DNA of 64,000 nucleotides from Candidatus Nomurabacteria bacterium. GTDB taxonomy: Bacteria > Patescibacteriota > Minisyncoccia > Phycocordibacterales > UBA9973. The notes beneath the pieces were generated by a model. The model was given only the letters and a program-made list of their open reading frames with translations, made no database searches and had not been told where the DNA came from. The stretch's first letter is position 1; each line of letters begins with the position of its first letter. Positions 36,952-64,000 of this stretch are shown one piece after another. Location of the stretch: contig CALRAL010000003.1 of assembly GCA_943350875.1 (NCBI GenBank), positions 25,174 to 89,173 on the forward strand, written 5' to 3'. Made by a program: the position numbers and the translations under genes.

Positions 36952-37118
36952 ACTTGAACGAAGCTCATGAACTCTGGCAAGAGCTTTAACTTTAACTTCA
37001 CCACTCAGCTAGGCCTTACCTATCAATTAACAAGGCCCAAAATCAATCTACTTTACTCAACTAAAGTGTAGAATGGTTTTTGGGGTTCTGTGAATTATCA
37101 TTACTGTGATAGACTTAG
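36952..37118 (+). repeat. Direct repeat copy A of an approximately 170-bp repeat (AACGAAGCTCATGAACTCTGGCAAGAGCTTTAACTTT ... ATCAATCTACTTTACTCAACTAAAGTGTAGAATGG...)
   Basis: Approximately 85-90% identical to copy B at 37352-37520. It contains a degenerate CTAGGC..CCTA hairpin. Confidence 0.7.
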
Positions 37119-37351: not shown

Positions 37352-37520
37352 GGATTAGATGTAAACGAAGCTCATGAACTCTGGCAAGAGTTTTAACTTT
37401 CATTCTATGAATTGCTAGGCAAGACCTAGCAATTACAATTAACAAGGCCCAGAATCAATCTACTTTACTAAACTAAAGTGTAGAATGTTTTTTTGATTCT
37501 GTAAATCGTCATAGTAATTT
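37352..37520 (+). repeat. Direct repeat copy B of the approximately 170-bp repeat, containing the GCTAGGCAAGACCTAGC hairpin
   Basis: See copy A. Its internal hairpin is identical to the rpsR terminator core at 57466-57482. Confidence 0.7.
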
Positions 37521-38807: not shown

Positions 38808-39710
38808 ATGTATATGGCGAAAGTCCCTGCAGTATTTAATAAAATAAATTCTCTTCGCGAGAGGTACTGGAAAGCTTTCAATAACAAAGAATCTCTAATT
38901 AAACTTGTTAGCGAGTCAGAAATTGCTGAGCAAGTGTATAACTCAAATGCTATCGAAAATAGTACTCTTACACTTGAAGAAACAGAAAAAATTTTATTAC
39001 AGATTGACCTAGATCGATATATAAGTGAGCGCGAGATTTTTGAAGCCAAAAATCTCGCGCGAGTGGTGTCATATATTGAGAAGCGAGCAAAAGAACAGGA
39101 GTTAACACTTGAAGTTGTATTATCACTTCACAAGATGCTTATTTCAAATATTCGTGATGAAATTGCAGGCAGGTTTAGAAAAGAAAAAGAATTTGTGCGA
39201 GTGGGTAGTCACATTGCTCCCGCACCGCAAGAAATACTTGAGAGGTTGGGAAATATGCTCGCAGAATATAATGCAAATAATCATGAAAATATTGTAAAAT
39301 GTATTGCACGATTGCATTTAGATTTTGAGTATATCCATCCATTTATCGATGGCAATGGTTGTATTGGTCGCGCGCTTAATAATTATCTTTTGATTCGTGA
39401 AGGATTTGTCCCCATCAATATTAAATTTATAGATCGCAAAAAATATTATGATGCATTTAAAGAATTTGATGAAAAAGGTAAAATAGAAATAATGGAAGAA
39501 ATTGTTGCCAAAGCTCTGACCAATAGTTATCACAAGCGTTTGGCATATTTAGAAGACAAGAAAATTATAACATTAGTGGAATATGCAAAATCTCAAAAAA
39601 TTTCTCATTCAAATTTGATAAATAAAGCTAAACGACAAACTATTGAAGCTTTTATGGAACGAGGGATTTGGAAAATAGGAGTTGAGTATAAGAAAAAATT
39701 ATATGAATGA
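38808..39710 (+). CDS. Fic/Doc family protein (AMPylator or toxin-like)
   Basis: 300 aa with the canonical Fic motif HPFIDGNGCIGRAL. The start may be the ATG at 38814, giving a leaderless transcript. Confidence 0.8.
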   Translation: MYMAKVPAVFNKINSLRERYWKAFNNKESLIKLVSESEIAEQVYNSNAIENSTLTLEETEKILLQIDLDRYISEREIFEAKNLARVVSYIEKRAKEQELTLEVVLSLHKMLISNIRDEIAGRFRKEKEFVRVGSHIAPAPQEILERLGNMLAEYNANNHENIVKCIARLHLDFEYIHPFIDGNGCIGRALNNYLLIREGFVPINIKFIDRKKYYDAFKEFDEKGKIEIMEEIVAKALTNSYHKRLAYLEDKKIITLVEYAKSQKISHSNLINKAKRQTIEAFMERGIWKIGVEYKKKLYE

Positions 39711-44427: not shown

Positions 44428-45051
44428 ATGCATCATATACACCACACAGAGGGGATAATATTAGGGAGTAGGAATTTTGGAGAGACGGGGAAATATTATT
44501 CCATTTTCACTCGTGATTTGGGCTTGGTATATGCTAGCGCGCAGGGAGTACGCAAGATGTCCTCCAAACTCCGTTTTGTCCTTTCAGATTATTCTCATAT
44601 AAAAGTGGATTTAGTAAAAGGCAAAGACCTCTGGCGAGTGACGAGCGCTTCAAAGACAGGGAGTCTTGAAGACATCTCAAAAGATAAAGAGAATTTTGTA
44701 GTTTTTGTCAGTATTTTAAATCTATTGAAAAGATTATTAGCTGGGCAAGAAGCAAATGAAACTTTATTTACAGATTTGGTAAAAGGTTTTAATTTTTTAG
44801 AAAAAGTTGGGCAAAAAGAACCTGCCCGCAATGCTTTCAGTATAGCTGATGCAGGCGGGGATAATTTAAGGAATATAGAAATAATAATAGTTTTACGAAT
44901 GTTGAATAATCTGGGATACATAGGAGCCGGAGAAACATCAGAGAATATAATAAAATCTCCATTTGAAGAGAATTTGGTGTTTGAAGTATCAAAGAATAGG
45001 TCTAAAGTTTTAGAGCAGATAAACAAGGCCTTAAAAGAGACTCATTTGTAA
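44428..45051 (+). CDS. recO: DNA repair protein RecO, compact, with an in-frame family-1 insertion
   Basis: RecO N-terminal OB-fold pattern EGIILGSRNFGETGKYYSIFTRDLGLVYASAQGVRK. The insertion at 44821-44860 encodes EPARNAFSIADAGGD. Confidence 0.65.
   Translation: MHHIHHTEGIILGSRNFGETGKYYSIFTRDLGLVYASAQGVRKMSSKLRFVLSDYSHIKVDLVKGKDLWRVTSASKTGSLEDISKDKENFVVFVSILNLLKRLLAGQEANETLFTDLVKGFNFLEKVGQKEPARNAFSIADAGGDNLRNIEIIIVLRMLNNLGYIGAGETSENIIKSPFEENLVFEVSKNRSKVLEQINKALKETHL
44821..44860. repeat. Family-1 palindromic element, in the reverse-complement orientation relative to the nusA copies, in-frame in recO
   Basis: CCTGCCCGCAATGCTTTCAGTATAGCTGATGCAGGCGGGG. Confidence 0.75.
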
Positions 45052-51011: not shown

Positions 51012-52091
51012 ATGTTTGAAAAGGATGAAATAACTTCTATCTCAATATCGACGGGTACGCTGATTCGCGCAGTTTTGGTCGCGCTTGGTGTTTTCCTTCT
51101 ATGGTATTTGCATGGTTTGATTTTAATTATTTTGACGGCGATAGTTTTGGCTTCTTTTGTGGAGTCTACCTTGCCATATTTCGCTAAAATAAAGATTTCT
51201 CGTGTTTGGGGAGTAGTTATATTTTATTTTCTTTCTATCCTTATATTTGCCGGAGTATTTTATTTATTTGCGCCACTTCTCATCACTGAAGTTTATAATT
51301 TTTCTACATTCATTTCTCATTATGTGCAGGGAGTGGACTTTTTGGATTATTTCAAGAGCAATAATTTCTCTGGGGCCAAGGATCTAGTAGCCAATCTTTC
51401 TAATAATTTTTCCTTACCAGAACTCCTCTCTGTATCCAAAGCATTTATCACCAATCTTTCTGGAGGATTCTTTCAGACTCTCTCCATCACTTTCGGTAGC
51501 ATCTTTAATTTTATCTTAATAATCATTATTTCTTTTTACCTTTCCATTCAAGAGAGGGGAATTGAAGACTTTTTAGGAATTATTGTACCGGCTAAATATG
51601 AAGATTATGCGATAGATTTATGGCAACGTTCAAATAGGAAAATAGCTCTTTGGATCAGGGGCCAGATGCTTGTCGGATTCTTGATAGCAGTGCTAACTTA
51701 CCTAGTACTCTCGCTTATGGGCATACAGTATGCTTTGCTTTTGTCTATCATTTCTGGAGCCATGGATTTGGTGCCATATGGTATCCTAATAGCTTTGATA
51801 CCTGCCGCTTCTTTTTCATATGTTTCAGGTGGTATCTCAACTGCTCTCATGGTGACTGGCGCTTATTTGATAATTCACCAATTTGAAGTTTTCCTTTTTG
51901 CTCCGCTTATTATTAAAAAAGTAGTAGGACTTTCACCCCTCGTCATTATTCTCTCTGCGGTGGTTGGGTTTGAATTGGGTGGTATCTGGGGGCTCGTGCT
52001 TGCAATACCTCTGACTATATTTATCATGGAATTGATAGGTGATGTTGAAAAGCATAAAAGTTTTGCTAGAACAAAAAATGAAGAAAAATAG
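51012..52091 (+). CDS. AI-2E family (PerM/UPF0118-like) membrane transporter
   Basis: 359 aa with about 8 TM helices and the AI-2E topology. Confidence 0.5.
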   Translation: MFEKDEITSISISTGTLIRAVLVALGVFLLWYLHGLILIILTAIVLASFVESTLPYFAKIKISRVWGVVIFYFLSILIFAGVFYLFAPLLITEVYNFSTFISHYVQGVDFLDYFKSNNFSGAKDLVANLSNNFSLPELLSVSKAFITNLSGGFFQTLSITFGSIFNFILIIIISFYLSIQERGIEDFLGIIVPAKYEDYAIDLWQRSNRKIALWIRGQMLVGFLIAVLTYLVLSLMGIQYALLLSIISGAMDLVPYGILIALIPAASFSYVSGGISTALMVTGAYLIIHQFEVFLFAPLIIKKVVGLSPLVIILSAVVGFELGGIWGLVLAIPLTIFIMELIGDVEKHKSFARTKNEEK

Positions 52092-53607
52092 TTTTTATAT
52101 TACCACTACTTTGCCTTATGTAAATGCTCCATTGCATTTAGGACACGCTACGGAGATAATACGTGCAGATACTATAGCTCGATTTAAAAAAATACAAGGT
52201 TTCGATGTGTTTTTTAATACTGGAACAGATGAACATGGGCAAAAAATTTATGAATCTGCAGAAAAGGCTGGTAAGGGAGTAAAAGAATATGTTGATTATT
52301 ATGCGGATTTATACAAGAGAACTTTAGAGAGGTTTGGTGTATTGTCAGATGTGCATTATATCCGGACGACAGATGAAAATCATACAAAAGCCGCAAAAGA
52401 ATTTTGGGCAAGATGTAAAGACAAGGGTTTTATATACAAAAAGAATTACCAGGCAAAGTATTGTGTTGGTTGCGAGGAAGAGAAAACTGAAAGTGAACTG
52501 GTTGATGGCAAATGCCCTGAACATGATAGGGTTCCGGATTTAATAAACGAAGAGAACTACTTTTTTAAATTTAGTGCTTTTACAGATAAATTAGAGAATT
52601 TCTATAAAGAAAATTCAGATTTTATCGTTCCTAATTATAGGATGAATGAGATGCGTGAGTTCATAAAACATGGACTCAATGATTTTAGTATTTCTCGCTT
52701 AAAATCAAAGATGTCTTGGGGTATAGATGTGCCGGGAGATGAAGATCATGTCATGTATGTCTGGTTTGATGCATTAACAAATTATATTTCTACATTAGGA
52801 TGGCCGGATAAAACTCCCCTCCTTATGGAGGAGGGGGTTGGGGGTGGTAATTCAAAAAATCACCACCTCGCCCTAAAGGGCTCTCCTCCTCAACAAGGAG
52901 GAGAGGAATCTCTATTTTCAAAGTACTGGATAAATGGTAATCCAACACAATATTGTGGTAAAAATAATACTCGTTTTCAAGGTCTTATGTGGCAGGCAAT
53001 GCTCTTGGCAGTAGATTTGCCATTAACACATCAGATTATCGTTGATGGTTTTATTTTAGGAGAAGGAGGTATAAAAATGTCTAAGACTCTTGGCAACACA
53101 ATAGATCCACTAGATTTAATACAAGAATATGGGACCGATGGACTCCGATATTTCGTATTACGAGATTTTCATTCTTTTGAGGATACCGCGGTTTCAAAAG
53201 ATAGGCTTAAAGAATCATATAATGCAAATCTGGCGAATGGGCTAGGGAATCTGACTAGTCGCATTTTGACTTTATCTGAGAAATATTTAGATAATGGAAT
53301 AAAAGAAACGAAATTTTCTATACCACAAGTAAATGATTTCTTAAATACTTTTGACATACAGCTTGCAATGAAAGTTATTTTTGATTTGATAAACGATTTG
53401 GATAAACAAATACAGAAAACAGAACCGTTCAAAGTTATAAAAGTGAATGAAGAAGAAGGAAAGAAATTAATTAAAAGTCATGTAAAGCAACTCCTTACCA
53501 TCGCGAAATCTTTAGCTCCATTTTTGCCTGAGACCTCAGAAAAAATAGTAGAACTTATTAAACAAAATAAAAAACCAGAAAAGCCCCTATTTTTAAGGAA
53601 AGAATAA
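52039..53607 (+). CDS. metG: Methionine--tRNA ligase with an in-frame family-2 GC-rich element insertion
   Basis: LHLGHA (HIGH) and KMSKT motifs. The insertion at 52813-52915 encodes DKTPLLMEEGVGGGNSKNHHLALKGSPPQQGGEESLF. Confidence 0.9.
   Translation: MMLKSIKVLLEQKMKKNSFYITTTLPYVNAPLHLGHATEIIRADTIARFKKIQGFDVFFNTGTDEHGQKIYESAEKAGKGVKEYVDYYADLYKRTLERFGVLSDVHYIRTTDENHTKAAKEFWARCKDKGFIYKKNYQAKYCVGCEEEKTESELVDGKCPEHDRVPDLINEENYFFKFSAFTDKLENFYKENSDFIVPNYRMNEMREFIKHGLNDFSISRLKSKMSWGIDVPGDEDHVMYVWFDALTNYISTLGWPDKTPLLMEEGVGGGNSKNHHLALKGSPPQQGGEESLFSKYWINGNPTQYCGKNNTRFQGLMWQAMLLAVDLPLTHQIIVDGFILGEGGIKMSKTLGNTIDPLDLIQEYGTDGLRYFVLRDFHSFEDTAVSKDRLKESYNANLANGLGNLTSRILTLSEKYLDNGIKETKFSIPQVNDFLNTFDIQLAMKVIFDLINDLDKQIQKTEPFKVIKVNEEEGKKLIKSHVKQLLTIAKSLAPFLPETSEKIVELIKQNKKPEKPLFLRKE
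52813..52915. repeat. Family-2 composite GC-rich hairpin element (CCCCTCC..GGAGGGG, GGTGGTAATT..AATCACCACC, GCCCTAAAGGGC, CTCCTCC..GGAGGAG), in-frame in metG
   Basis: Collinear with the intergenic copy at 60509-60655 and with the ftsK copy at 62891-62975. All three are read in frame. Confidence 0.8.
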
Positions 53608-53611
53608 ATTA

Positions 53612-53636
53612 CACAGGGTTCCCCTGTGTAATTTAT
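53612..53636. repeat. REP-like 24-bp palindrome TTACACAGGGTTCCCCTGTGTAAT, copy 1
   Basis: Identical palindromes occur at 54228-54252 and 54941-54965, flanking the RAYT gene. Confidence 0.8.
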
Positions 53637-53650
53637 ATAAGACTTACAAT

Positions 53651-54202
53651 TTAATTAGCTGTACAAAAAAACTCTCTTACGCACCAAACTTTTCCATCTA
53701 CAGGCTGACTTATCGATTCGCTAACAAAAGATTTTGGCATTCTATGGTTACCATATTTTAAATTAAAAGTGTCCATCATTTGTTGCACTTTACCTGATTG
53801 TTTAAGTTCTGTCTCTACATTATCATGAGCTATTTGAGGTGTTTCCCCAAACAAAAGTGTTCCTCGTCTATCGAAATAGTAATCAGCTTCTTCTTTTTTA
53901 GATTTAACAAAATTGCAATGCCAAGTAAATTTAAACTTACTTACTCCTGATTCTTTAATAACCTCGATTTTTACCAATGGATTTTGGACTTTTGAAGGAT
54001 ATTGTTTTTTTAAAGTGTCTCCAACTATTTTTGCAAATTCATTCCCACTTTTATGAGCTTCTGCTCCATTTGTAGATTCAAATGTATATTCATTATGTTC
54101 TCGAAAATTCTTATCACTAAACGCATCTAGTGAACCAAAGATCGCCGTTCCCGCTATAATTTTACTTGTTTGTTTTATAAAATTTCTTCGTGATTCATCC
54201 AT
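53651..54202 (-). CDS. Tat-signal secreted hypothetical protein, lying between REP copies
   Basis: 183 aa whose N-terminus SRRNFIKQTSKIIAGTAIFG is a twin-arginine motif. Confidence 0.45.
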   Translation of the reverse strand: MDESRRNFIKQTSKIIAGTAIFGSLDAFSDKNFREHNEYTFESTNGAEAHKSGNEFAKIVGDTLKKQYPSKVQNPLVKIEVIKESGVSKFKFTWHCNFVKSKKEEADYYFDRRGTLLFGETPQIAHDNVETELKQSGKVQQMMDTFNLKYGNHRMPKSFVSESISQPVDGKVWCVREFFCTAN

Positions 54203-54227
54203 CTTTAAATTATATCACAACGAAGGT

Positions 54228-54252
54228 TATACACAGGGTTCCCCTGTGTAAT
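54228..54252. repeat. REP-like palindrome, copy 2, at the 5' flank of the RAYT gene
   Basis: ACACAGGGTTCCCCTGTGTAAT. Confidence 0.8.
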
Positions 54253-54267
54253 GTGTGGTATATTACA

Positions 54268-54966
54268 GTAATGGAAAGAAAAATACCTTTTGTGAAAGGT
54301 GAATACTATCATATTTATAATCGTGGCGTAGAAAAGAGAATTATATTTAAGACAGATTTTGATTATAAAAGATTTATTCTTTTGTTGCATGTTTTGAATA
54401 CAGACAAAAATCTTAAAATAAGGGATTTACTCCGGTCTAGTTCTTTTAATGAATTGTTAAAAATAAAAAATGATAATCCTATTGTGGCGATTGGATCATA
54501 CTGCCTGATGCCAAATCATTTCCATCTACTTATTACTCCTTTGGTGGAGGGAGGTATTTCAAAATTTATGTTGAAATTAGAAACTGCGTATTCTATGTAT
54601 TTTAATGGAAAAAATGAACGAAGTGGTGCTTTATTTCAAGGTGTGTTTAAATCGCAACATCTAGACAATGATGAGTATTTAAGATACATATATTCTTATA
54701 TACACTTAAATCCAGCAAAATTAAAAGATAAAAATTGGAAAGAGAATAGACCCAAAGATTCTAGATCTTTAAAAGAATTTATTGTGAGTTATAAATATTC
54801 TAGTATTGGAGAATATATTAATAATAACTTTACTATAGTAAATATTTCAGTTTTTCCTGATTATAGAGAGTTATATAAATCTAATAAGGAATTTTTCAAG
54901 ATTATGATTGATGATTGGTTGAATTATAAGGAGATTACAACAATTACACAGGGGAACCCTGTGTAA
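54268..54966 (+). CDS. REP-associated tyrosine transposase (RAYT; IS200/IS605 TnpA-like HUH Y1 transposase)
   Basis: YHIYNRGVEKRIIF, the HUH motif LMPNHFHLLI and Tyr-containing YIYSYIHLNPAK. I placed the start at 54268 (MERKIPFVKGEYY), whereas the ORF track begins at 54190. It is flanked by identical REP hairpins. Confidence 0.7.
   Translation, partial: VMERKIPFVKGEYYHIYNRGVEKRIIFKTDFDYKRFILLLHVLNTDKNLKIRDLLRSSSFNELLKIKNDNPIVAIGSYCLMPNHFHLLITPLVEGGISKFMLKLETAYSMYFNGKNERSGALFQGVFKSQHLDNDEYLRYIYSYIHLNPAKLKDKNWKENRPKDSRSLKEFIVSYKYSSIGEYINNNFTIVNISVFPDYRELYKSNKEFFKIMIDDWLNYKEITTITQGNPV
54941..54965. repeat. REP-like palindrome, copy 3, in the reverse-complement orientation, at the 3' end of the RAYT gene
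   Basis: ATTACACAGGGGAACCCTGTGTAAT overlaps the last RAYT codons. Confidence 0.8.
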
Positions 54967-54977
54967 TTTAAGAGATT

Positions 54978-55817
54978 ATGCCAATATATATAGATATACA
55001 TAGTCATGTTAATTTCAAAGCTTTTGACGAAGACAGAGATACTGTCATCAAACGAGCTCTTGATAATGATACGTGGGTCATAAATGTAGGCACTCAAGTA
55101 GATACTTCAAGGAGTGCAGTAGAACTTGCAGATAAATACGAGGACGGGGTGTATGCTATCGTCGGTCTTCACCCGATACATACCAGTGCATCGTATCATG
55201 ATGAGCAAGAGTTGGGTGTTGGTGGTGTAGAATTTACTTCGCGTGGAGAAATTTTTGATAAAAACGTTTACAGAGAATTCTTAAAAGATCCAAAGGTAGT
55301 GGCGATAGGTGAGTGTGGGTTAGATTATTTTAGATGTACCCCTGAAACTATTTCAAAACAAAAAGAAGCCTTTATCGCGCAAATAGGACTTGCAAATGAA
55401 TTCAATAAGCCGTTGATGCTTCATATCCGTAATAATCCTAAAGACAAAACGAAAGATGCTTACAAAGATGCAATAGAAATTCTTAAGAAATATCCTACGG
55501 TTAGGGGCAATGTGCATTTTTTCGCTGGGATGCCAGAACATGCGAAAAGTTTCCTTGAGATTGGCTTTACACTTTCTTTTACCGGAGTGATAACTTTTAC
55601 CCATGATTATGATGAAGTAATTAAAAATACTCCGCTAGATATGATCATGTCTGAGACGGATTCCCCGTATGTTGCTCCTGTGCCATATAGGGGCAAAAGA
55701 AATGAGCCGGTGTATGTAAGTGAGGTGGTCAAAAAGATTGCTGAAATAAAAAATTTGCCAATAGACGAGGTTGCACAGGCGATAATAGCCAATGCAAAGC
55801 GAGTTTTTTGGATTTGA
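54978..55817 (+). CDS. tatD: TatD-family metal-dependent DNase/hydrolase
   Basis: IDIHSHVNF N-terminus and TIM-barrel TatD motifs. Confidence 0.85.
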   Translation: MPIYIDIHSHVNFKAFDEDRDTVIKRALDNDTWVINVGTQVDTSRSAVELADKYEDGVYAIVGLHPIHTSASYHDEQELGVGGVEFTSRGEIFDKNVYREFLKDPKVVAIGECGLDYFRCTPETISKQKEAFIAQIGLANEFNKPLMLHIRNNPKDKTKDAYKDAIEILKKYPTVRGNVHFFAGMPEHAKSFLEIGFTLSFTGVITFTHDYDEVIKNTPLDMIMSETDSPYVAPVPYRGKRNEPVYVSEVVKKIAEIKNLPIDEVAQAIIANAKRVFWI

Positions 55818-55943
55818 TTTCTTATACCTTTCTATGTTATAATACATTTGGTTCAGTGAGAAGAGGGTTTGTGTTCTCACCGGAGACTTTGGTCTTTGAA
55901 AACTTAAATTCACAATTTTTTTCAGGGAGTGAAAGACAGAAAT

Positions 55944-56087
55944 TATGCTGAAAAAATTCCTATATTTTGTTCTTGTATTTATAGGAGTAATGTGTTTACT
56001 TTACAGTATTCACTTACTCTATGCTTATAAAGAACAATCAGTAAAAAATACCCACCAGACTACTGTCGGTGGGTATTTTATTTTTTA
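55944..56087 (+). CDS. Possible small hydrophobic peptide (MLKKFLYFVLVFIGVMCLLYSIHLLYAYKEQSVKNTHQTTVGGYFIF)
   Basis: I translated it by hand. It ends in a hairpin plus T-run at 56044-56088. It is speculative. Confidence 0.15.
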
Positions 56088-56095
56088 GATTTAAA

Positions 56096-56190
56096 TTCTC
56101 CTCTTGAGGAGTACCTGCAGGGGGAGGTGGATGAATTCTTCCACCTCGTCTTTTGATTACAAAAGCCACCCCTCAAGAGGGGAATATGAA
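56096..56190. repeat. Cluster of GC-rich hairpins (CTCCTCTTGAGGAG; GAGGTGG..CCACCTC; CCCCTCAAGAGGGG) upstream of rpsF
   Basis: Same polypurine/polypyrimidine stem style as family 2. Confidence 0.5.
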
Positions 56191-56231
56191 AACAGTGGAC
56201 TTTTCCAAAACTTTTTGCTATTATCAATCCA

Positions 56232-56753
56232 ATGAAAGATTTAGGAGTTAAAAATGAAAATGACTCATTGGTAGATGAGAATGGTGTTTCGGACGCTCGG
56301 GTCTACGAAGTGGGGTACCTTTTGGTGCCTACTTTGGGCGAGGAAAACGTTCCTGCCATCTATGGCAACTTGAAAGAACTCGTGTCCTCTTTTGGTGGGG
56401 AGATGATCTCAGATGAAATGCCAAAGATGATAGATCTTGCCTACACTATGGAAAAAGTCACAGCAAATGTCCGCAGTAAATTCAACACTGCTTATTTTGG
56501 TTGGGTGAAATTCTACATAGACAGTCAGAAAGTTTTAGAATTAAAGAAAAAGCTCGCCCTCGATGCAAACATTATTCGTTTTTTGATAGTGAAGACTGTT
56601 AAAGAAAATACAATTGCTGCCAAGAGATTTGTGCATAGAGATACTTTTAAAAAGAGGACGCCTGTTATGAAAGAGGGTGCTGAAAATGAAGAAGTAGTGC
56701 CTATAAACAAAGAAGAGATAGATAAAGAAATAGATGCGATGGTAGCTGTTTAA
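56232..56753 (+). CDS. rpsF: 30S ribosomal protein S6, with terminal extensions
   Basis: The S6 core VYEVGYLLVP...LAYTMEK. It is followed by ssb and rpsR in the conserved order. Confidence 0.7.
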   Translation: MKDLGVKNENDSLVDENGVSDARVYEVGYLLVPTLGEENVPAIYGNLKELVSSFGGEMISDEMPKMIDLAYTMEKVTANVRSKFNTAYFGWVKFYIDSQKVLELKKKLALDANIIRFLIVKTVKENTIAAKRFVHRDTFKKRTPVMKEGAENEEVVPINKEEIDKEIDAMVAV

Positions 56754-56775
56754 TTATCATTTAACCAATCAAATT

Positions 56776-57231
56776 ATGTATTTAAACAAAGCAATTGTAA
56801 TAGGGAACTTAACTCGTGATCCAGAATTAAAGTCTTTGCCTTCTGGTATCAAAGTATGTTCTTTTTCTTTAGCTACAAATCGTGTTTGGAAAGATAAGAA
56901 TGGTGCTCGCCAAGAATCTGCTGATTATCACAATGTGGTAGTATTTGGACGCCAAGCCGAGACAGTCGCTCAGTATATGAAAAAGGGAAGCTCAATGATG
57001 GTAGAAGGCAGGATGCAGACTAGGAGCTGGGATGATAAAAACAGTGGTGAGAAGAAATACCGCACCGAGATAGTAGCAGAGAAAACACAGTTTGGTCCAA
57101 AAAGTGCTGGTTCTACAGGTGGATCATCGATGTCATCTCCTAAAACACCGACAGTAGATGTGGCAGGTGGGGAAGTAGATACCATAGAATACCCAGAAGA
57201 GGACATTAACCCAGAAGATATACCATTTTAA
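56776..57231 (+). CDS. ssb: Single-stranded DNA-binding protein
   Basis: OB-fold N-terminus NKAIVIGNLTRDPEL, with an acidic C-terminal tip DIPF. Confidence 0.9.
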   Translation: MYLNKAIVIGNLTRDPELKSLPSGIKVCSFSLATNRVWKDKNGARQESADYHNVVVFGRQAETVAQYMKKGSSMMVEGRMQTRSWDDKNSGEKKYRTEIVAEKTQFGPKSAGSTGGSSMSSPKTPTVDVAGGEVDTIEYPEEDINPEDIPF

Positions 57232-57249
57232 TAAAATTTTAATAAATAT

Positions 57250-57450
57250 ATGAAACAAGATTATTTTTCAGCCAACAACATAAAACACATAGATTACAAA
57301 GATATTGAGATCTTAAGTAAATTCATCAACCCAAATGGCAAGATTTTAAGCCACAAGAAGACTGGGGTGACAGCTAAAAACCAGCGTCAACTCTCAGGAG
57401 CCATCAAAAACGCTCGTTTTATGGGCCTTTTGCCTTTCGTAGCGAAGTAG
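57250..57450 (+). CDS. rpsR: 30S ribosomal protein S18
   Basis: IDYKDIEILSKFI...RQLSGAIKNARFMGLLPF. Confidence 0.85.
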   Translation: MKQDYFSANNIKHIDYKDIEILSKFINPNGKILSHKKTGVTAKNQRQLSGAIKNARFMGLLPFVAK

Positions 57451-57456
57451 TTTAGT

Positions 57457-57491
57457 GTCAAAGTTGCTAGGCAAGACCTAGCAACTTTGAC
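57457..57491 (+). terminator. Rho-independent terminator with a perfect 15-bp stem (GTCAAAGTTGCTAGG-CAAGA-CCTAGCAACTTTGAC) plus T-rich tail
   Basis: Immediately 3' of rpsR. The core GCTAGGCAAGACCTAGC recurs at 37405 and, in variant form, at 38699 and 59830. Confidence 0.7.
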
Positions 57492-57527
57492 TTTATATGT
57501 TAATAACTTTGCCTTTACTTCTCGCGC

Positions 57528-57538
57528 GGGGGGGGGGG
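57528..57538. repeat. Homopolymeric G11 tract upstream of a surface-protein gene
   Basis: GGGGGGGGGGG sits in an AT-rich intergenic region about 95 bp upstream of the ATG at 57632. Confidence 0.8.
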
Positions 57539-57604
57539 TTATACTTACCTTATGCTTAAAAGGTGTATCTTTTTGAGCTTTAAAATTAACTTATTTCAGC
57601 CATA

Positions 57605-57628
57605 GGCTGATCCGCCTTGGGCGGAAAA
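57605..57628. repeat. Family-4 palindromic element (GGCTGATCCGCCTTGGGCGGAAAA) immediately upstream of the 57632 start codon
   Basis: Matches 62428-62451 in ftsK and 40685-40717 in ileS. Confidence 0.7.
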
Positions 57629-59770
57629 ATTATGAAAAAATATATAGGAATTTTGTTTGTTTTGAGTTTTTTGATTGCCTCACCGAGTTTTGTTTTCGCT
57701 GCTCAGGATGGAGATCTTGATCCAGCCGATGTCGGAGCGAGTTGTGCCGATATTACTCATGACTTGCGTTATAGGATGCGAGATACTGCTACTAATGATG
57801 ACATTGCTGTCTTGCAAGATTTCTTGAATAGTAATGGATATACGACTGTATCTCCAGCTGGATTCTTCGGAACTTCTACCTTGAAAGCGGTTAAAAAGTT
57901 TCAGTCTGCCAATGGTTTGCGTCAAACTGGTTTCGTTGGTCCTAAAACTCGTGCCAAAATAAAAGCGATTGATTGTGGAGATGTAATTGTTCCCCCTGTT
58001 GCCGGTGCTCCTTGTATTTCTATAAATAGTCCATTAGCTAATTCGCAAGTTGCTCTTCCTTTTACTGTGAGAGGTGTATTTAATGATGACAGAAGTGAAA
58101 GACCTACAGGGTGTTCAATGTGGAAATTCTTTGAAGGACAGGCTGGGACAGCTAAATTACATTACAAGAATAATGGCTCTTGGTTTTCTCTAGGTGGAGT
58201 AAAAGTTATTCCAGTTTCTGATTGGATGTCATCAGGACCAAAATCTTTTTCTGTGATTATGGATTTGAAGGGTGGTAGTGGTGTTGACGCCATGTATTCA
58301 TTCAAAGACGGTATGCCATTGGAGGTTGTATTTCAAGAAGAAGATCCTTCGGGCATGGGTCATGGTAAAGCTTTTACATTACCACTTGTATATAAATCTA
58401 CAGTCACTCCTCCTACCACCCCATCCATTACAGTCCTTTCTCCAAATGGAGGGGAGACATATACAGCGGGACAACAGATTATGGTGAAATGGAACAGTTC
58501 AAATATTACATATCCAGTTTCAATTTATCTAGATAAAGTACCTGTAGGATATATTCCATCTTTTAGTAATGTAATATCTAGAGTTACTTTAGTTTCTAGT
58601 ACACCTAATGATGGACAAGAACAAATTACATTACCAAATTCTTCTGATTGGTTTTCTGGTCAAAAGCAATATGCTGTGACTGTATCTCCAGTAGAGTCAT
58701 CAGGTCTTGATGTTGCTGATATTTCTAATAATTCATTTACAATCAACGCCCCATCTTCCACCAATCCTCCCGTTATTGATGGCGTCTCTGGACCTTCAAC
58801 ATTAAACACAGGTGCGACAGGTACTTGGACAGTCACAGCTCACGATTCAAATGCTGGTAATTTGTCATACTCTGTAGTCTGGGGTGATGAAGGTTCTAAG
58901 AGAGCTATGGCTTCTTCTACCACATCTCAAACAGCTACATTTACACATGTTTACAGTACTGCTGGGAATTATGTTCCTACCTTTACAGTCACAAACATGA
59001 CAACCAATCAGAGTGCTACTACTAGTTTGAGTGTAAATGTGACAGCTACAACTCCTTCTCTATCTGTAGTTTTGTCTAGAAATACAGCTTATATAAATCA
59101 GAGTTTCTATACTAACAGTACTCATAAAAAAATTGCTTCATTTACAATACAAGCTGGAGGTTCTCAAGGTGTTCATGTAAACAATTTTCAGATGGATTTT
59201 TCTGGATATAATCCAGGAAGTATTGCTCCTACAGGTATTTCTAACTTAGGCATATATTCAAATGGTGTTCAGCTTGGTTCAACTATTGCTACTGTCCTTA
59301 CTATCAATAATGTCCCAATGAACTTCAATATAGTTGCTGGCAATACTTCTGTTATTGATGTTTATGCTGATTTAGGATCTTCAGCTGGTTCCTTGATAGT
59401 ACCATTAAATGCAAGTGGAATTGGTCTCGTATCTGGAACTACTTTCTCTACCCAGACAATGAATGGTCAAACAATCACTGTGAAGATTCCAACCCCTCCT
59501 CAAATATTTGGTGTCTCTGGTCCTTCATCGTTAGGTCCAAATCAAATGGGAACTTGGACAGTATCATCTCATGATAATAATACTGGTACTTTGCAATATG
59601 CCGTAAATTGGGGTGAATCAGATCCAAATTATTATCCACAATCAACTTCTGTTTTTACTCATGCTTATAAAACTGTGGGGACATATACAGCTACATATAT
59701 TGTCACGAATACTGCAACAGGTCAGTACACACAAAAGACATTTAGTACAAAAATCAGTTTAATTAATTAA
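57617..59770 (+). CDS. Secreted cell-surface protein with a peptidoglycan-binding (PG_binding_1) domain and tandem PKD/Ig-like domains
   Basis: Signal peptide MKKYIGILFVLSFLIASPSFVFA, so the likely true start is 57632. The PG-binding motif is LQDFLNSNGYTTVSPAGFFGTSTLKAVKKFQSANGL. The repeated PKD-like blocks are TGTWTVTAHDSNAGNLSYSVVWGDEGS and MGTWTVSSHDNNTGTLQYAVNWGESD. Confidence 0.6.
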   Translation: MGGKIMKKYIGILFVLSFLIASPSFVFAAQDGDLDPADVGASCADITHDLRYRMRDTATNDDIAVLQDFLNSNGYTTVSPAGFFGTSTLKAVKKFQSANGLRQTGFVGPKTRAKIKAIDCGDVIVPPVAGAPCISINSPLANSQVALPFTVRGVFNDDRSERPTGCSMWKFFEGQAGTAKLHYKNNGSWFSLGGVKVIPVSDWMSSGPKSFSVIMDLKGGSGVDAMYSFKDGMPLEVVFQEEDPSGMGHGKAFTLPLVYKSTVTPPTTPSITVLSPNGGETYTAGQQIMVKWNSSNITYPVSIYLDKVPVGYIPSFSNVISRVTLVSSTPNDGQEQITLPNSSDWFSGQKQYAVTVSPVESSGLDVADISNNSFTINAPSSTNPPVIDGVSGPSTLNTGATGTWTVTAHDSNAGNLSYSVVWGDEGSKRAMASSTTSQTATFTHVYSTAGNYVPTFTVTNMTTNQSATTSLSVNVTATTPSLSVVLSRNTAYINQSFYTNSTHKKIASFTIQAGGSQGVHVNNFQMDFSGYNPGSIAPTGISNLGIYSNGVQLGSTIATVLTINNVPMNFNIVAGNTSVIDVYADLGSSAGSLIVPLNASGIGLVSGTTFSTQTMNGQTITVKIPTPPQIFGVSGPSSLGPNQMGTWTVSSHDNNTGTLQYAVNWGESDPNYYPQSTSVFTHAYKTVGTYTATYIVTNTATGQYTQKTFSTKISLIN

Positions 59771-59810
59771 ATATTATTAATATCAAGGACTACCCTTGAT
59801 ATTAATACAA

Positions 59811-59886
59811 AAATCCCTAAGGTTAGCCTAGGGATTTTGCGTTAGGTCTTGCCTAACGCACAAATACACAGGCGTTGCCTGTGTAT
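59811..59886 (+). terminator. Three consecutive GC-rich hairpins (CCCTAAGG..CCTAGGG; GCGTTAGGTCTTGCCTAACGC; GCACAAATACACAGGCGTTGCCTGTGTATTTGTGC) between the convergent PKD-protein gene and efp
   Basis: Stems seen directly. The third resembles the REP palindrome TACACAGG..CCTGTGTA. They are probably bidirectional terminators and REP-like elements. Confidence 0.55.
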
Positions 59887-59895
59887 TTGTGCTAA

Positions 59896-60474
59896 TTACA
59901 CTCGCTCCACATATTCTCCAGTTTCTGTGTTGATGCGGATAGTGTCGCCTTCGGCGACGAACATCGGAGCGTTGATAGTGGTGCCATTTTCAAGGGTTAT
60001 GACTTTTATTCCACCTTTGGATGTGTCTCCACGGACTGCAGGAGGAGCTTCTTTGACTTTGAATTCCATTTTGATAGGCAGATCCACACTGATATTCACT
60101 TCTTCGCCGTCATTGTCCCAGACTAGGACTGTGGTGTTGCTATTTTGTTTCAAGAATTTTGCTGCAGTACCGATGAGTGATGCGTCTAGTTTGAATCTGT
60201 TTGCTTTGTCATTTGGATCGCAGAACCAATATTCTCCACGGTTAGCGTATAAGAATGTGACTTCGCGTTTCTGTATATCTGCTTCATCGGCAGAGTCTGC
60301 GACGTGAAAAGTAGCAGGGAAGACCTTACCAGATATTAAGCTTTTTAATTTGACCTGATTTTGAGGCTTCCTTTGTTGGGTACGAGCGACATGCGACTCC
60401 ACCACCATGCATGGCTCATCATTATGAATTATAATTTTTTTTTCTCTGATTTCAGAGTATTGTAATTGAGACAT
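59896..60474 (-). CDS. efp: Elongation factor P
   Basis: 192 aa with the three-domain EF-P pattern. The loop sequence is divergent from the canonical KPGKG. Confidence 0.8.
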   Translation of the reverse strand: MSQLQYSEIREKKIIIHNDEPCMVVESHVARTQQRKPQNQVKLKSLISGKVFPATFHVADSADEADIQKREVTFLYANRGEYWFCDPNDKANRFKLDASLIGTAAKFLKQNSNTTVLVWDNDGEEVNISVDLPIKMEFKVKEAPPAVRGDTSKGGIKVITLENGTTINAPMFVAEGDTIRINTETGEYVERV

Positions 60475-60508
60475 GACTTTATACTAGCAGAAAAATTGTT
60501 TAAATCAA

Positions 60509-60655
60509 CCCCCTAAATCCCCCTTGTCAGGGGGACTTTCTATTTTTCCTCCCCTCCTTAATCAAGGAGGGGAATGAGGGGTGGTAATTAAGAAATTTAA
60601 TAAATCACCACCTCGCCCTAAAGGGCACTCCTCCTCCACAAGGAGGAGATGATCC
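60509..60655. repeat. Family-2 composite GC-rich hairpin element, intergenic copy between efp and recA
   Basis: Its modules are CCCCTTGTCAGGGGG; CCCCTCCTTAATCAAGGAGGGG; GGTGGTAATTAAG...ATCACCACC; GCCCTAAAGGGC; and CTCCTCCTCCACAAGGAGGAG. It is collinear with the metG in-frame copy. Confidence 0.8.
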
Positions 60656-60657
60656 AA

Positions 60658-61701
60658 TTATGCCTCCTCCACAAATTTCTTGCGGATTTCCTTTAATATT
60701 TCATTTGCAATTTTTGTATTCTCTTTCAAGAATGTGCGAGTGGAGTCATAGCCTACACCTAGTTTCATTTTTTCTTTTGATTCACCACTTGGCATATAAA
60801 AGTATGAATTCCCAGTTTTCTCTACTATTTTAAATTTCTCTCCGAGGGCTATTATTTCTCCTTCTTTAGAAATTCCTTCGTTGTAGATGATATCAAACTC
60901 TGTTTGTTTAAACGGCGCGGCGACTTTGTTCTTGACCACTTTTATACGAGTTCTAGAACCCACTATTTCCTCTCCTTTTTTGATTTGGGCAATTTTACGT
61001 ATATCTAGGCGAACTGAAGTGTAGAATTTGAGAGCTTTACCTCCTGGGGTAGTCTCTGGGTTACCAAACATCACTCCTATCTGCATGCGGATCTGGTTTA
61101 TGAATATGACAGCTGTTTTAGAATGAGAAACTATCGCTGTGAGCTTGCGGAGCGCTTGAGACATCAGACGGGCTTGTTTACCCACGTGATATGCTCCCAT
61201 ATCGCCTTCTATTTCATCTTTTGGGGTGAGTGCTGCTACAGAGTCCACGACTATCACATCCACTTTACCTGTACGCACAAGGCTGTCCACTATGTCGAGA
61301 GCTTGTTCACCTGTGTCTGGTTGAGAAATGAGCAAGTCATTTATATTTACTCCGAGCTTTTTTGTGTAATCAGGATCCATCGCATGTTCGGCATCTATGT
61401 ATGCACAAACCCCGCCGAGTTTTTGCGCCTCAGCTACTATATGGAGCGAGAGGGTAGTCTTGCCGGAGGACTCTGGCCCGAATATCTCAATTATTCTTCC
61501 ACGTGGTATGCCTCCGATGCCGAGCGCCATGTCGAGCCCTATCGAGCCAGTCGGTATCGCATTTATGTGCACTTTTGGAGTTTCACCTAGTTTCATTATT
61601 GAACCCTCGCCGAATTTTGCTTGAATGGCCTTTAATGTATCATCTAGCCCTGTTGCTCCCATTGATTTGTCTTCTTTCTGCTCTTTTTTCTTTTTCATCA
61701 T
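60658..61701 (-). CDS. recA: Recombinase RecA
   Basis: [10 protein letters not shown] Walker A and full-length RecA signature motifs. Confidence 0.95.
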
Positions 61702-61816
61702 AATCTTATCCTTCTTAGGATTACAGGATTTGCTTTTTTGAGCTGGTCTGGCTGGGATAGGGACCCAGAGAACCGAGGACCCGAAAAAAAGAAAAGCCTG
61801 TGATCCTAATTATTAA

Positions 61817-62167
61817 CTAATAAACTAATTTATAATTTTTTTCATCAACATTCCCAAATTTATCGCTTGCTTTTATATTTACCACATTATACCCCGAAAG
61901 TAGAGCTATCGTTTCCTTAAAATTTCCACTCTGATCTACTGATATTTCTCGACCATTCAAGTAGAGTTTGTTGGCATTTTTGGCATTTCCAGCAATATTC
62001 ATAATACTTTCAGTTATTTTTGTCCCATCTACTATATTTACGTCTCTTATTTTTACTCCTGTTATCAGATTTTGTGAACGGTAAATTCCATAGAATATTA
62101 TTATTAAGAAAAACACTGCTAGCCCCATCATTTTCAATATCCTTTTGTTAGTTGGTTCTGTACTCAT
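61817..62167 (-). CDS. Small membrane-anchored protein, possibly a FtsQ/POTRA-like division protein
   Basis: 116 aa with an N-terminal TM helix. It sits immediately downstream of ftsK on the same strand. This is a weak call. Confidence 0.25.
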   Translation of the reverse strand: MSTEPTNKRILKMMGLAVFFLIIIFYGIYRSQNLITGVKIRDVNIVDGTKITESIMNIAGNAKNANKLYLNGREISVDQSGNFKETIALLSGYNVVNIKASDKFGNVDEKNYKLVY

Positions 62168-62168
62168 T

Positions 62169-63971
62169 TTATTGCATTATATTATTTCCAGATTCATCGT
62201 GTTCTATTTTTTGTAATACTTCCCTTGGTTTTGCTCCATCGCCAGGGCCTATCACTTCGCGTTCTTCGAGTTGGTCCATGAGTCGGGCTGCTCTAGCGTA
62301 GCCCAGCTTTAATTTCCTTTGTAAATACGAAGTAGATGCCTTGCCAGCTTCTATGACACAAGCTCGAGCTTCTTCATACATTTCATCATCTGATTCATTA
62401 TTTTCATCTAAGTTTTCCCAGCCAAAGGCTGGTCCGCCTTGGGCGGAAAATATCGATTTGTCAGCTGAGATACTTCCGTTACTGAGTGATATCTCTTCTG
62501 TTATTTCATCTCGATATTTATCTGCCAAATACTTGACCACTTTCTTTACTTCATTTTCAGAAATAAAGGCAGACTGGAGTCTTTCTGGTTGAGCTTCTCC
62601 CGAAGAGTAGAGCATGTCTCCAGCTCCGAGGAGCTTTTCTGCTCCGCCGGTGTCAAGTATAGTGCGAGAATCTATTTGGGAAGACACTTTTAGAGCGATG
62701 CGGGCAGGGATGTTGGCCTTGATGAGTCCAGTAATGACGTTTACCTCTGGGCGTTGAGTGGAAAGTATGAGGTGTATGCCCACAGCTCGAGACATTTGAG
62801 CCAGGCGCACGATAGCGGACTCGAGCTCTCTAGGATAGGAGCTCATTATATCTGCCAATTCATCCAATATTATGACTATATATGGCAAACGATCACCACC
62901 CCCTGCTCCCTCCTCCACAAAGAGGGGGTCTGAGTTTCCCCGCCTCGATGAGGAGGGGACGGAAGGGGTGGTCTTTCCCCATACATTATTGTGATAACTT
63001 TCTATATCTCGTACTGATTCCGCTTCCAAGATGTCATAACGGCGATCCATTTCTTTGGCCGCCCATTTAAGGGCGAGTATTGCCTTTTTGGCTTCAGTTA
63101 TGACAGGGGTGAGTAAGTGAGGGATCTTGTTATAAAGGGTGAGTTCTACTCGTTTTGGATCTATCATTATTAATTTCAAATCATCTGGACTATTTCTGTA
63201 TAACAAGGATGTGATGATAGCGTGTATTGAGACAGATTTTCCAGAGCCAGTAGTTCCTGCGATGAGAACGTGTGGCATCTTGGCCAAGTTCCCAAAGCTG
63301 GCTCTGCCAGATATTCCACGCCCGAGCGCAATAGTGAGTGGTTTAGTAGAATTTTGGAATTTCTCATCGGAAAGGAGAGTAGCGAGGCCCACGGTTGATT
63401 TTACTTTATTTGGGATTTCGATACCTACGAGGGATTTGCCAGGAATTGGTGCTTCTATGCGGATAGGGTGTGCGGCTAGGGCTAGGGCGAGGTCACTTTG
63501 AAGTCCGACTATGCGGGAGAGTTTCACTCCTTCGGCTGGTTTTAGCGCATACCTCGTCACTGTGGGGCCAATGGTTATCTCATCCATCTCGACTTCGATA
63601 CCGAAGTTCTGTAAGGTACGTTTTATTATATTTGCATTTGCTTTTATGTCTCCAGTATTTGGTTTGCCTTGATCGCCTTCGAGGAGGGAGAGTGGGGGAG
63701 GTGTATAAGCTGAAAATAGTCCAGACTTTATTTTTTTAATCGGCATCTCATCTTCTTCCTCTGTTTTTTCTTCTTTTTTATTTTTTCCTACACCTAATGC
63801 TTTTTTAATTTTTTCTCCTGTTGTCTCATTTCCCTCCTCCCCTGACAAGGGGAGGAAAGAGGAGGGGTTATTTACCCCCTCTGCTTCCGGTATCTCCCCC
63901 GAGGCCGAGGGCGAAATGTATCCATTTTTTTTCTTCCAAATCATCCCCCACACTTTTTTCAAAAATGGCAT
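62169..63971 (-). CDS. ftsK: DNA translocase FtsK/SpoIIIE with three in-frame palindromic-element insertions
   Basis: Walker A GTTGSGKSVSI, the motor domain, and a C-terminal gamma winged-helix. Insertions lie at 62428-62451, 62891-62975 and 63826-63895. Confidence 0.9.
   Translation of the reverse strand: MPFLKKVWGMIWKKKNGYISPSASGEIPEAEGVNNPSSFLPLSGEEGNETTGEKIKKALGVGKNKKEEKTEEEDEMPIKKIKSGLFSAYTPPPLSLLEGDQGKPNTGDIKANANIIKRTLQNFGIEVEMDEITIGPTVTRYALKPAEGVKLSRIVGLQSDLALALAAHPIRIEAPIPGKSLVGIEIPNKVKSTVGLATLLSDEKFQNSTKPLTIALGRGISGRASFGNLAKMPHVLIAGTTGSGKSVSIHAIITSLLYRNSPDDLKLIMIDPKRVELTLYNKIPHLLTPVITEAKKAILALKWAAKEMDRRYDILEAESVRDIESYHNNVWGKTTPSVPSSSRRGNSDPLFVEEGAGGGDRLPYIVIILDELADIMSSYPRELESAIVRLAQMSRAVGIHLILSTQRPEVNVITGLIKANIPARIALKVSSQIDSRTILDTGGAEKLLGAGDMLYSSGEAQPERLQSAFISENEVKKVVKYLADKYRDEITEEISLSNGSISADKSIFSAQGGPAFGWENLDENNESDDEMYEEARACVIEAGKASTSYLQRKLKLGYARAARLMDQLEEREVIGPGDGAKPREVLQKIEHDESGNNIMQ
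62428..62451. repeat. Family-4 palindromic element, in-frame in ftsK
   Basis: GGCTGGTCCGCCTTGGGCGGAAAA encodes, on the minus strand, FSAQGGPAFGW. Confidence 0.7.
62891..62975. repeat. Family-2 GC-rich hairpin element, in-frame in ftsK
   Basis: ACCACCCC...GGGGTGGT outer stem with inner CCCTCC/GGAGGG stems. It encodes ...PLFVEEGAGGGD. Compare the metG insertion PLLMEEGVGGGN. Confidence 0.75.
63826..63895. repeat. Family-2-type GC-rich nested hairpin (CCCTCCTC-CCCTGACAAGGGG-AGGAAA-GAGGAGGG), in-frame near the ftsK 5' end
   Basis: Encodes NNPSSFLPLSGEEGNE. It shares the CCCCTGACAAGGGG module with 60524-60538. Confidence 0.65.
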
Positions 63972-64000
63972 GAGTTCTGGTTTTGTATCAAATATAACGA

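Follow-up and report, generated by a model that had tools for sequence, protein, structure and literature searches.

Repeats that belong to the class II intrastrand triplex motifs have been described under the successive names BoxC, PIT elements and TM/TMECO (Bergler 1992; Hoyne & Maher 2000; Holder et al. 2015, PMC4666352). It has been shown that a single-stranded TMECO oligonucleotide forms a triplex in vitro, while none has been detected in vivo, and that PIT/TM elements in E. coli have neither promoter nor terminator activity (PMC4666352). In this species the motifs are strictly intergenic, their inverted pairs always join two different unit types, and they stall polymerases in vitro and mark unstable loci (PMC4666352). 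While triplex-motif repeats are abundant in bacteria and have been characterised biophysically, their origin, mobility and function have long gone unexplained. Here, a stretch of 64 kb from a Candidatus Nomurabacteria contig (the window; GC about 36%, Paceibacteria/Nomurabacteria-like Patescibacteria) is described in which GC-rich elements of this architecture lie in frame within metG, ftsK (twice) and argS, and also in two intergenic gaps, one upstream of rpsF and one between recA and efp. These elements are probably selfish, non-autonomous repeats and cargo-less derivatives of elements that carry a DUF559 nuclease gene, and they may be mobilised in trans. The structural class of the repeat is already known; what is new is the in-frame colonisation of essential genes, the hot spot in methionyl-tRNA synthetase (MetRS) and the link to DUF559.

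Two other kinds of repeat invite comparison. The Rickettsia palindromic elements (RPEs), reportedly described by Ogata and colleagues in 2000 and 2002, are said to be palindromic repeats that sit in frame in protein genes of a small AT-rich genome, where they reportedly add surface peptides and leave the host protein intact. They are said to measure 100-150 bp, to be without a triplex mirror segment and to occur in Rickettsia only, and we know of no nuclease associated with them. The REPIN-RAYT system, reportedly described by Bertels and Rainey in 2011, is said to consist of inverted doublets of short palindromes and a single small transposase gene.

Architecture of the elements

The elements are built from a unit in which a pyrimidine (Y) arm is followed by a 2-9-nt loop, a complementary purine (R) arm and a linker; the third segment, which comes last, is a mirror image of the purine arm in which G stays G and A becomes T or A. 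A purpose-written finder for this order of parts (Y arm - loop - R arm - linker - mirror segment) gave nine matches in the window, representing eight distinct units, compared with a mean of 0.07 matches in 30 dinucleotide-preserving shuffles. All matches fall within the six loci named in the original prediction, each of which does carry an element where it had been placed, and a relaxed finder additionally recovers the decayed ftsK units. The host genes and units are:

23781 to 25583, plus strand: argS (arginyl-tRNA synthetase), host gene; Pfam tRNA-synt_1d, DALR_1, Arg_tRNA_synt_N
23980 to 24009, plus strand: argS single unit, CTCCCC-TTGCCAAG-GGGGAG-GTTG-GAGGGG, with in-frame peptide SPLAKGEVGGG; finder match
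52075 to 53607, plus strand: metG (methionyl-tRNA synthetase), host gene; Pfam tRNA-synt_1g; P0001 matches at 100%
52815 to 52848, plus strand: metG unit A, (T)CCCCTCCT-TATGG-AGGAGGGG-GTT-GGGGGTGGT; finder match; equals the pan-bacterial consensus unit
52849 to 52860, no strand: metG spacer AATTCAAAAAAT separating the two third strands; corresponds to the position of the DUF559 gene in elements of the L035 type
52861 to 52905, minus strand: metG unit B, CTCTCCTCCT-TGTTG-AGGAGGAGAG-(mini-hairpin GCCCTTTAGGGC)-GAGGTGGTG; finder match; 92% identity to 60594-60652
56096 to 56190, no strand: intergenic palindromic composite upstream of rpsF, partly decayed; one recognisable unit at 56098-56129 (plus strand); finder match; fold z = -5.2
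60508 to 60535, minus strand: unit C in the recA/efp gap, TCCCCCT-GACA-AGGGGGA-TTT-AGGGGGT; finder match
60549 to 60586, plus strand: unit A in the recA/efp gap, CTCCCCTCCTT-AATC-AAGGAGGGG-AATGA-GGGGTGGTA; finder match
60607 to 60649, minus strand: unit B in the recA/efp gap, CTCCTCCT-TGTGG-AGGAGGAG-T-GCCCTTTAGGGC-GAGGTGGT; finder match
62169 to 64000, minus strand: ftsK, host gene, N-terminus beyond the window edge; Pfam FtsK_alpha, FtsK_SpoIIIE, FtsK_gamma
62891 to 62928, minus strand: ftsK site 1 left unit, decayed, ATCACCACCCCC-TGCT-CCCTCCTC-CACAAA-GAGGGGG (plus-strand letters); 36 of 42 positions equal the left end of the L001 DUF559 element
62937 to 62973, plus strand: ftsK site 1 right unit, TCCCCGCCTC-GAT-GAGGAGGGGA-CGGA-AGGGGTGGTC; relaxed finder
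63834 to 63868, plus strand: ftsK site 2 unit 1, CTCCTCCCCT-GACA-AGGGGAGGAA-A-GAGGAGGGGT; finder match
63874 to 63914, minus strand: ftsK site 2 unit 2, Y arm decayed, ACCCCCTCT-GCTTCCGGT-A-TCTCCCCC-GAGGCC-GAGGGCGA (plus-strand letters); read from the sequence

Two units form an inverted doublet in metG, at 60509-60655 and at both ftsK sites, with those at ftsK site 1 standing head to head across a 9-nt spacer, and the argS element is one unit only. The original prediction had described modular elements composed of five separate hairpins; the modularity was upheld, but the five modules are all parts of triplex-motif units. Thus, GCCCTAAAGGGC is the mini-hairpin linker of unit B, and the supposed hairpin GGTGGTAATT..AATCACCACC is really formed by the two third strands of an inverted doublet; the third strand of unit B faces that of unit A, and the pair is therefore no independent hairpin. 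The second ftsK element, placed at 63826-63895, is present but extends to about 63914, while an open reading frame (ORF) at 63470..63739, taken for an artefact seeded by an element, overlaps none and runs antisense to native GC-rich ftsK sequence. The copies in metG and at 60509-60655 are collinear, as had been claimed, with 92% identity over 59 nt.

Perfect Y/R stems of 6-10 bp are present in the eight units, and the mirror third tract has 0 or 1 mismatch in all nine finder matches. Measured against the rule of 1-6 nt in the ITxF definition, the loops of units A and C lie within it, the hairpin loop of the argS unit is 8 nt long, and the linker of unit B, which holds its own mini-hairpin, is 9-13 nt long. 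Folding as single-stranded DNA with ViennaRNA, which models hairpins and no triplets, supported the predicted hairpins: the fold is strong for the metG element (z = -6.4 / -6.8), 60507-60655 (z = -5.9 / -5.4) and 56096-56190 (z as listed), reaches a z of about -3 for ftsK site 2, and is weak for ftsK site 1 (-1.7) and argS (-0.9), since these copies are decayed or short.

The same architecture is found far beyond the window. When one genome per species was scanned for unit A with the pattern CCCCTCCTT..GGAGGGG..GGGTGGT, at least 120 stretches were found, compared with about 1 expected by chance (an estimate for uniform base composition), and the matches listed come from Bacteroidota, Gammaproteobacteria (Thiomargarita), Acidobacteriota, Nitrospinota, Chloroflexota, Cyanobacteria, Planctomycetota and several lineages of Patescibacteria. 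The base 3' of GGGTGGT, which the pattern left free, is T in 116 of the 147 matches listed and so completes the mirror, and stem variants outside the search pattern obey the mirror as well (GGAGAGGGG with GGGGTGAGG, AGGGGAGGG with GGGTGGGGT, AAGGGGG with GGGGGTT). Among the matches listed, the mirror was seen in 76 of 229 strand instances, as opposed to 17 of 229 for a direct-repeat control. By architecture, the window elements belong to the class II intrastrand triplex motif, and the triplex itself is predicted. In a Thiomargarita metagenome-assembled genome (MAG), unit A is also repeated in tandem, with at least five 41-nt copies running head to tail (L045, 7128-7323), and many further copies lie on other contigs of this MAG.

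Other readings were tried and rejected: a G-quadruplex leaves the A-to-T mirror rule unexplained, the idea that the third segment instead forms Watson-Crick pairs with the Y arm fails on a mismatch, and a link to anti-Shine-Dalgarno mimicry found no support. Rfam has no family for the elements, whether the window was searched at the E-value threshold or 15 related loci at gathering scores, and a literature search by sequence words returned unrelated papers only.

Insertions in MetRS, FtsK and ArgS

Every genic copy (metG, ftsK twice, argS) keeps the reading frame, in agreement with the original prediction, and contains zero stop codons; the predicted peptides, PLLMEEGVGGGN in MetRS and PLFVEEGAGGGD in FtsK, are also as originally given. 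In MetRS the insertion site lies about 50 residues ahead of KMSKT, and the protein of the window exceeds its closest relatives by about 34 aa (514 aa versus about 480 aa; 65-69% identical), which are without the segment; the predicted gain of some 35 aa is thus accurate. Inserts of at least 7 aa occur at this single MetRS loop in 36 of 120 orthologues, with almost none elsewhere in the protein, and their kinds include A only, B only, A+B, a third unit type 'PSASGISPLAGGEE' and other palindromes. In a neighbour-joining tree of MetRS, insert-bearing and empty sites are interleaved, and the window's own clade is otherwise empty.

In FtsK, the alignment gives the same answer, as neither insert is present in the syntenic relative L005, while the protein of L003 has different units at both sites, including a full A+B doublet in the linker. 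The ArgS insert is missing in at least 108 of 120 orthologues, and a few have other such inserts at the same site. The view that these are dispersed insertion elements was to be given up if the rest of the genome held no such elements and the segments proved to be conserved protein features of related taxa; this came about only by half, for similar segments do recur at the same MetRS loop, but as repeated, variable insertions with a patchy distribution on the tree, and the nearest orthologues are without them. As judged from these alignments, the elements are shown to be insertions into insertion-tolerant loops of MetRS, FtsK and ArgS and not ancestral protein features. The proposed check against structural models was run on MetRS, where the AlphaFold model has a mean pLDDT of 86.8 and its only internal stretch below 50, residues 253-279, is the insert, which is predicted to be a disordered coil between two helices.

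At the same MetRS loop, Cys-rich inserts ('...CSAEH...') were observed in the orthologues P0009, P0041, P0044 and P0099, and a back-translation such as TGCTCGGCCGAGCA would make them palindromic. If they are palindromic, the loop gathers several unrelated palindromic families.

As DNA, the metG copy clearly resembles the intergenic copy more than it does the orthologous inserts of L001 and L002 (by eye), and the MetRS insert of L004 matches ftsK site 2 unit 2 of the window at about 23 of 26 positions (hand count), although its coding orientation is the opposite one. Elsewhere, unit A is found inserted in frame within real genes of other genomes, in three frames and both orientations, and the genes that it interrupts, with Pfam domains on either side, encode UDP-glucose dehydrogenase, Wzy_C, beta-CASP RNase, UxuA, ApbA and SpoIIE. 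The genic share of unit A is about 3 in 10 in Patescibacteria and much smaller in other taxa (small numbers, among the matches listed). The different frames and orientations in unrelated genes, together with the 92%-identical intergenic copy, therefore support the view that the triplex-motif insert is a DNA element and not a peptide module. Triplex repeats can thus enter essential genes in frame and, in small-genome bacteria, alter the surface loops of MetRS, FtsK and ArgS, with a single MetRS loop struck repeatedly; in annotation, spurious ORFs and peptides of the kind PLL-EEG-GGG are to be expected from them. Literature searches on palindromic elements that sit in frame in Patescibacteria turned up no relevant paper.

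Several other repeats and features were observed in the window. A second family of GC-rich double hairpins (TCCGCC-N3-GGCGGA + CCAGCC-N3-GGCTGG) occurs at 25029-25070 (argS), 40675-40716 (ileS), 57587-57628 and 62409-62450 (ftsK); it is in frame, encoding 'GGPALGW' / 'GGPAFGW' in ArgS and FtsK, and is missing from the FtsK of L003 and L005. A 46-nt repeat, 87% identical between its copies, lies within the recJ and comEC ORFs (16563-16608 and 18574-18619) and is probably another gene-inserted family. A 39-nt repeat, 97% identical, is found twice within the nusA ORF (2134-2172 and 3091-3129) with an inverted copy at 44799-44836, and the match to the NusA N-terminal domain spans about 38 extra residues. 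Repeat pairs at 36957-37081 and 37364-37493 (95% and 97% identical, spacing about 410 nt), in a stretch without a called ORF of at least 90 aa, suggest a tandem duplication. A G11 homopolymer at about 57524-57534 (GC island 57511-57546) stands upstream of a PG_binding/PKD ORF (57617-59770), in a region also covered by a weak Rfam match to IS605-orfB-I at 57454-57639 (E = 0.16, far under the gathering score). Finally, the isoleucyl-tRNA synthetase (39682-43347) has an internal histidine-phosphatase domain (His_Phos_1, residues 551-718), which is also present in syntenic relatives.

Association with DUF559 and origin of the repeats

In two of the syntenic loci (L001 and L003), a DUF559 ORF of 118-130 aa follows metG directly and is bracketed by triplex units. 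The metG-tatD gap that holds DUF559 in these loci is empty in L002 and L004 and contains a Y1-like ORF in the window. DUF559 also lies between units in Pontibacter (L008) and in an Ignavibacteria MAG (L089), and it is found with its bracketing units in frame inside restriction-enzyme genes in a cyanobacterium (L047) and a Bacteroidetes MAG (L035). The host genes of the latter two, each one continuous ORF, are an MmeI-like gene (L047, 281-3724) and a type ISP restriction-modification gene (L035, 979-2130). The six DUF559 proteins are 39-59% identical with an invariant E-x-D-G-x-x-H. The DUF559 profile has a strong match in PDB 3hrl ('endonuclease-like protein'; E = 3e-29) and a weak one in PDB 3r3p ('mobile intron protein'; E = 0.005).

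This association was then examined in 80 metagenomic loci picked by DUF559 homology alone. A triplex motif lies within 150 nt of the DUF559 ORF in 71 of them and on both sides of it in 41, the flanking pairs being inverted in 21 cases and direct in 2. The density of motifs is 6.8 per kb near DUF559 compared with 0.11 per kb in the far flanks, a 60-fold enrichment. The doublets of the window also resemble such elements without their gene: once the gene is taken out of the L035 element, its two ends are collinear with the metG doublet, and the ends of the L001 element match the ftsK site 1 doublet in the same manner. In L131, the DUF559 gene lies between two identical 94-nt doublets. Motif-like sequences stand beside the DUF559 gene in three complete genomes, where the finder scored a flanking match only in Azospirillum; in Picosynechococcus, variant motifs of the C5/G5 type flank the gene (by eye), and in Neisseria the motif upstream is decayed (by eye) and scored matches start about 200 nt downstream.

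E. coli offers a further example. In K-12, the sole motif in 30 kb is a canonical BoxC. Its distance from the DUF559 gene ycjD is 168 nt, and it stands upstream of fabI (= envM), which has been cited as the locus where BoxC was discovered. In this region (L206, NC_000913, 16041-16840), the BoxC is downstream of ycjD, and a degenerate duplicate of the ycjD 3'-end was observed in between. In phylogroups A, B1 and C, according to a published study, ycjD stands in the place of the eefRABCD operon. Published counts of TMECO are 13-30 (mostly 19-30) in ycjD-bearing lineages and 1-2 in B2 lineages, which have eefRABCD in place of ycjD, with ycjD status inferred from sequence types. Within the library searched, no paper linked DUF559 to these repeats. 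Plasmids and phages were considered as vehicles and rejected, as DUF559 relatives are rare there (40 plasmid records, 2 phage records).

Taken as a mechanism, the unit as single-stranded DNA would fold into a hairpin on which the mirror segment is laid as a third strand. The C/T and G/A composition of the repeats would leave almost no stop codons in all six frames, and insertions of a multiple of three nucleotides into permissive loops would therefore survive selection. The doublets of the window would descend, minus cargo, from a pan-bacterial element in which units flank a gene of about 120 aa for a DUF559 nuclease (Vsr-like PD-(D/E)XK), and this nuclease may provide mobility in trans, by analogy with the RAYT transposase and its REPINs. 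That the window elements are selfish triplex-motif repeats of such an origin is, on the evidence above, the probable explanation. The wider proposal is put forward tentatively, namely that BoxC/PIT/TM repeats in general might be the non-autonomous partners of a pan-bacterial DUF559, forming a second, independent replicator of the REPIN-RAYT kind with ends that are read as folded DNA, hairpin or triplex, and which in Patescibacteria might be a major recurrent source of in-frame insertions in essential proteins. The DUF559 association, including that of the founding BoxC copy by ycjD, supplies a concrete candidate for the mobilising enzyme, testable in E. coli.

Several observations weigh against the preferred explanation. 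No DUF559 gene was found within the 64-kb window, and gene and units are arranged in several ways ([+]gene[-], [-]gene[+], or with a doublet at one flank only), so that the motifs could be a preferred landing site of the gene and not its ends. A comparison of DUF559 clades with motif type was not significant in a global permutation (369 of 2000 shuffles reach the observed value), although local clusters exist. No target-site duplication could be defined, because no empty site is close enough, the nearest orthologue being 69% identical in protein. Neither an in vivo triplex nor mobility genes near the E. coli copies have been reported (Holder et al., PMC4666352), phylogeny confounds the correlation between TMECO and ycjD in E. 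coli, and 11 copies are present in E. coli O157, which is without ycjD.

Among the alternatives, it has to be considered that no dedicated enzyme is involved, and that the motifs, folded as hairpins or triplexes, stall replication and spread or decay via template switching, slippage and gene conversion, with DUF559 merely landing beside them or being retained. This fits the polymerase block in vitro, the unstable E. coli loci and the lack of any reported mobility gene nearby (PMC4666352), as well as the variable position of DUF559 relative to the units and the 41-nt tandem array in Thiomargarita. It is nevertheless unlikely, as it leaves unexplained a near-identical consensus of about 35 nt, with conserved linker and flanks, in distant phyla, the 60-fold local enrichment around one gene family, and the identical doublets on either side of the gene in L131.

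Still less probable is that the units are REP/BIME-like palindromes moved by a transposase of the window itself, the IS200-like Y1 (RAYT-type) enzyme whose ORF (54190-54966) follows the metG copy some 1.3 kb downstream. This ORF matches Pfam Y1_Tnp (E = 7e-8), its best NCBIfam match, under the curated cut-off, is the REP-associated tyrosine transposase, Y1 enzymes work on single-stranded DNA hairpins, and the doublets look like REPINs. However, the ORF is flanked by another palindrome family, TTACACAGGG-TTC-CCCTGTGTAA (53607, 54227, 54942), and not by triplex units; the triplex units are without the GTAG/CGTC tag of REPs (by eye); and elsewhere they go with DUF559 (71 of the 80 loci), no Y1 gene having been noticed in the inspected loci. 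The other palindrome was observed four times in the window (53607-54970; 59862-59890) and brackets an ORF at 53651-54202 (minus strand) together with the Y1/IS200-like, REP-associated-transposase-like ORF at 54190-54966 (plus strand), which looks like a RAYT-REP pair of its own.

Lastly, that the segments are selected features, either protein loops or RNA hairpins regulating translation or mRNA stability, is largely refuted: many Paceibacteria do have related peptides at this one MetRS loop and the recA/efp copy is placed where a hairpin could act on the transcript, but the closest orthologues are without the segments and their distribution is patchy, the same DNA occurs elsewhere in other frames and orientations and in unrelated genes and intergenic DNA, the MetRS insert is predicted to be disordered, and PIT elements show no promoter or terminator activity in E. 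coli (PMC4666352).

Comparison with known systems

With the origin in DUF559 elements as the preferred explanation, the repeats share features with several described systems. As in miniature inverted-repeat transposable elements, the doublets have terminal inverted repeats, ending in ATCACCACC... and ...GGTGGTGAT or equivalent; as for an autonomous partner, DUF559, whose nuclease fold has no known transposase activity, is carried by elements that share these ends. The arrangement of REP/BIME with RAYT was not found, since the Y1-like ORF is flanked by other palindromes and there is no GTAG/CGTC tag beside the triplex units. The DUF559 profile match to PDB 3r3p, which we take to be I-Bth0305I, an EDxHD/Vsr-like homing endonuclease, and the E-x-D-G-x-x-H invariant in the six DUF559 proteins are points of likeness to this group of enzymes; by contrast, the DUF559 gene stands free of any intron or intein, is flanked by structured repeats and has no defined homing site.

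Compared by description, the window elements are like RPEs in that they are palindromic and lie in frame in coding genes, and the mark by which RPEs are recognised, a palindromic repeat inserted in frame into a conserved protein, is seen here as well. Triplex repeats in general are like REPIN-RAYT in that doublets flank one small nuclease gene, on which many cargo-less copies appear to depend, and in that repeat counts drop in lineages without the gene, as in the TMECO/ycjD pattern of E. coli. They differ from it in that a DUF559 PD-(D/E)XK nuclease takes the place of the Y1 HUH transposase as the enzyme on which copies would depend, and in that the triplex repeats have a mirror third strand, no GTAG tag, and copies within genes.

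The closest likeness is to BoxC/PIT/TMECO. Both have the order of Y arm, loop, R arm, loop and reverse-Hoogsteen G/T strand, both are G/C-rich, multi-copy and often present as inverted pairs of two unit types, and in both the copy number differs strongly among related genomes. The stems differ, being CCCCTCCTT/AAGGAGGGG/GGGGTGGTT in the window as opposed to CCCTCNCCC/GGGNGAGGG/GGGNGAGGG in TMECO, and the strict BoxC/TMECO consensus CCCTCNCCC-N3-6-GGGNGAGGG-N3-GGGNGAGGG is present in the E. coli locus L206 and in none of the window units. Unit B of the window, moreover, has a linker of 9-13 nt with its own mini-hairpin. Finally, the host here is a Patescibacteria genome and the gene association is previously unreported, and while TMECO has been reported as always intergenic, four of the six loci in the window lie in frame in essential genes.

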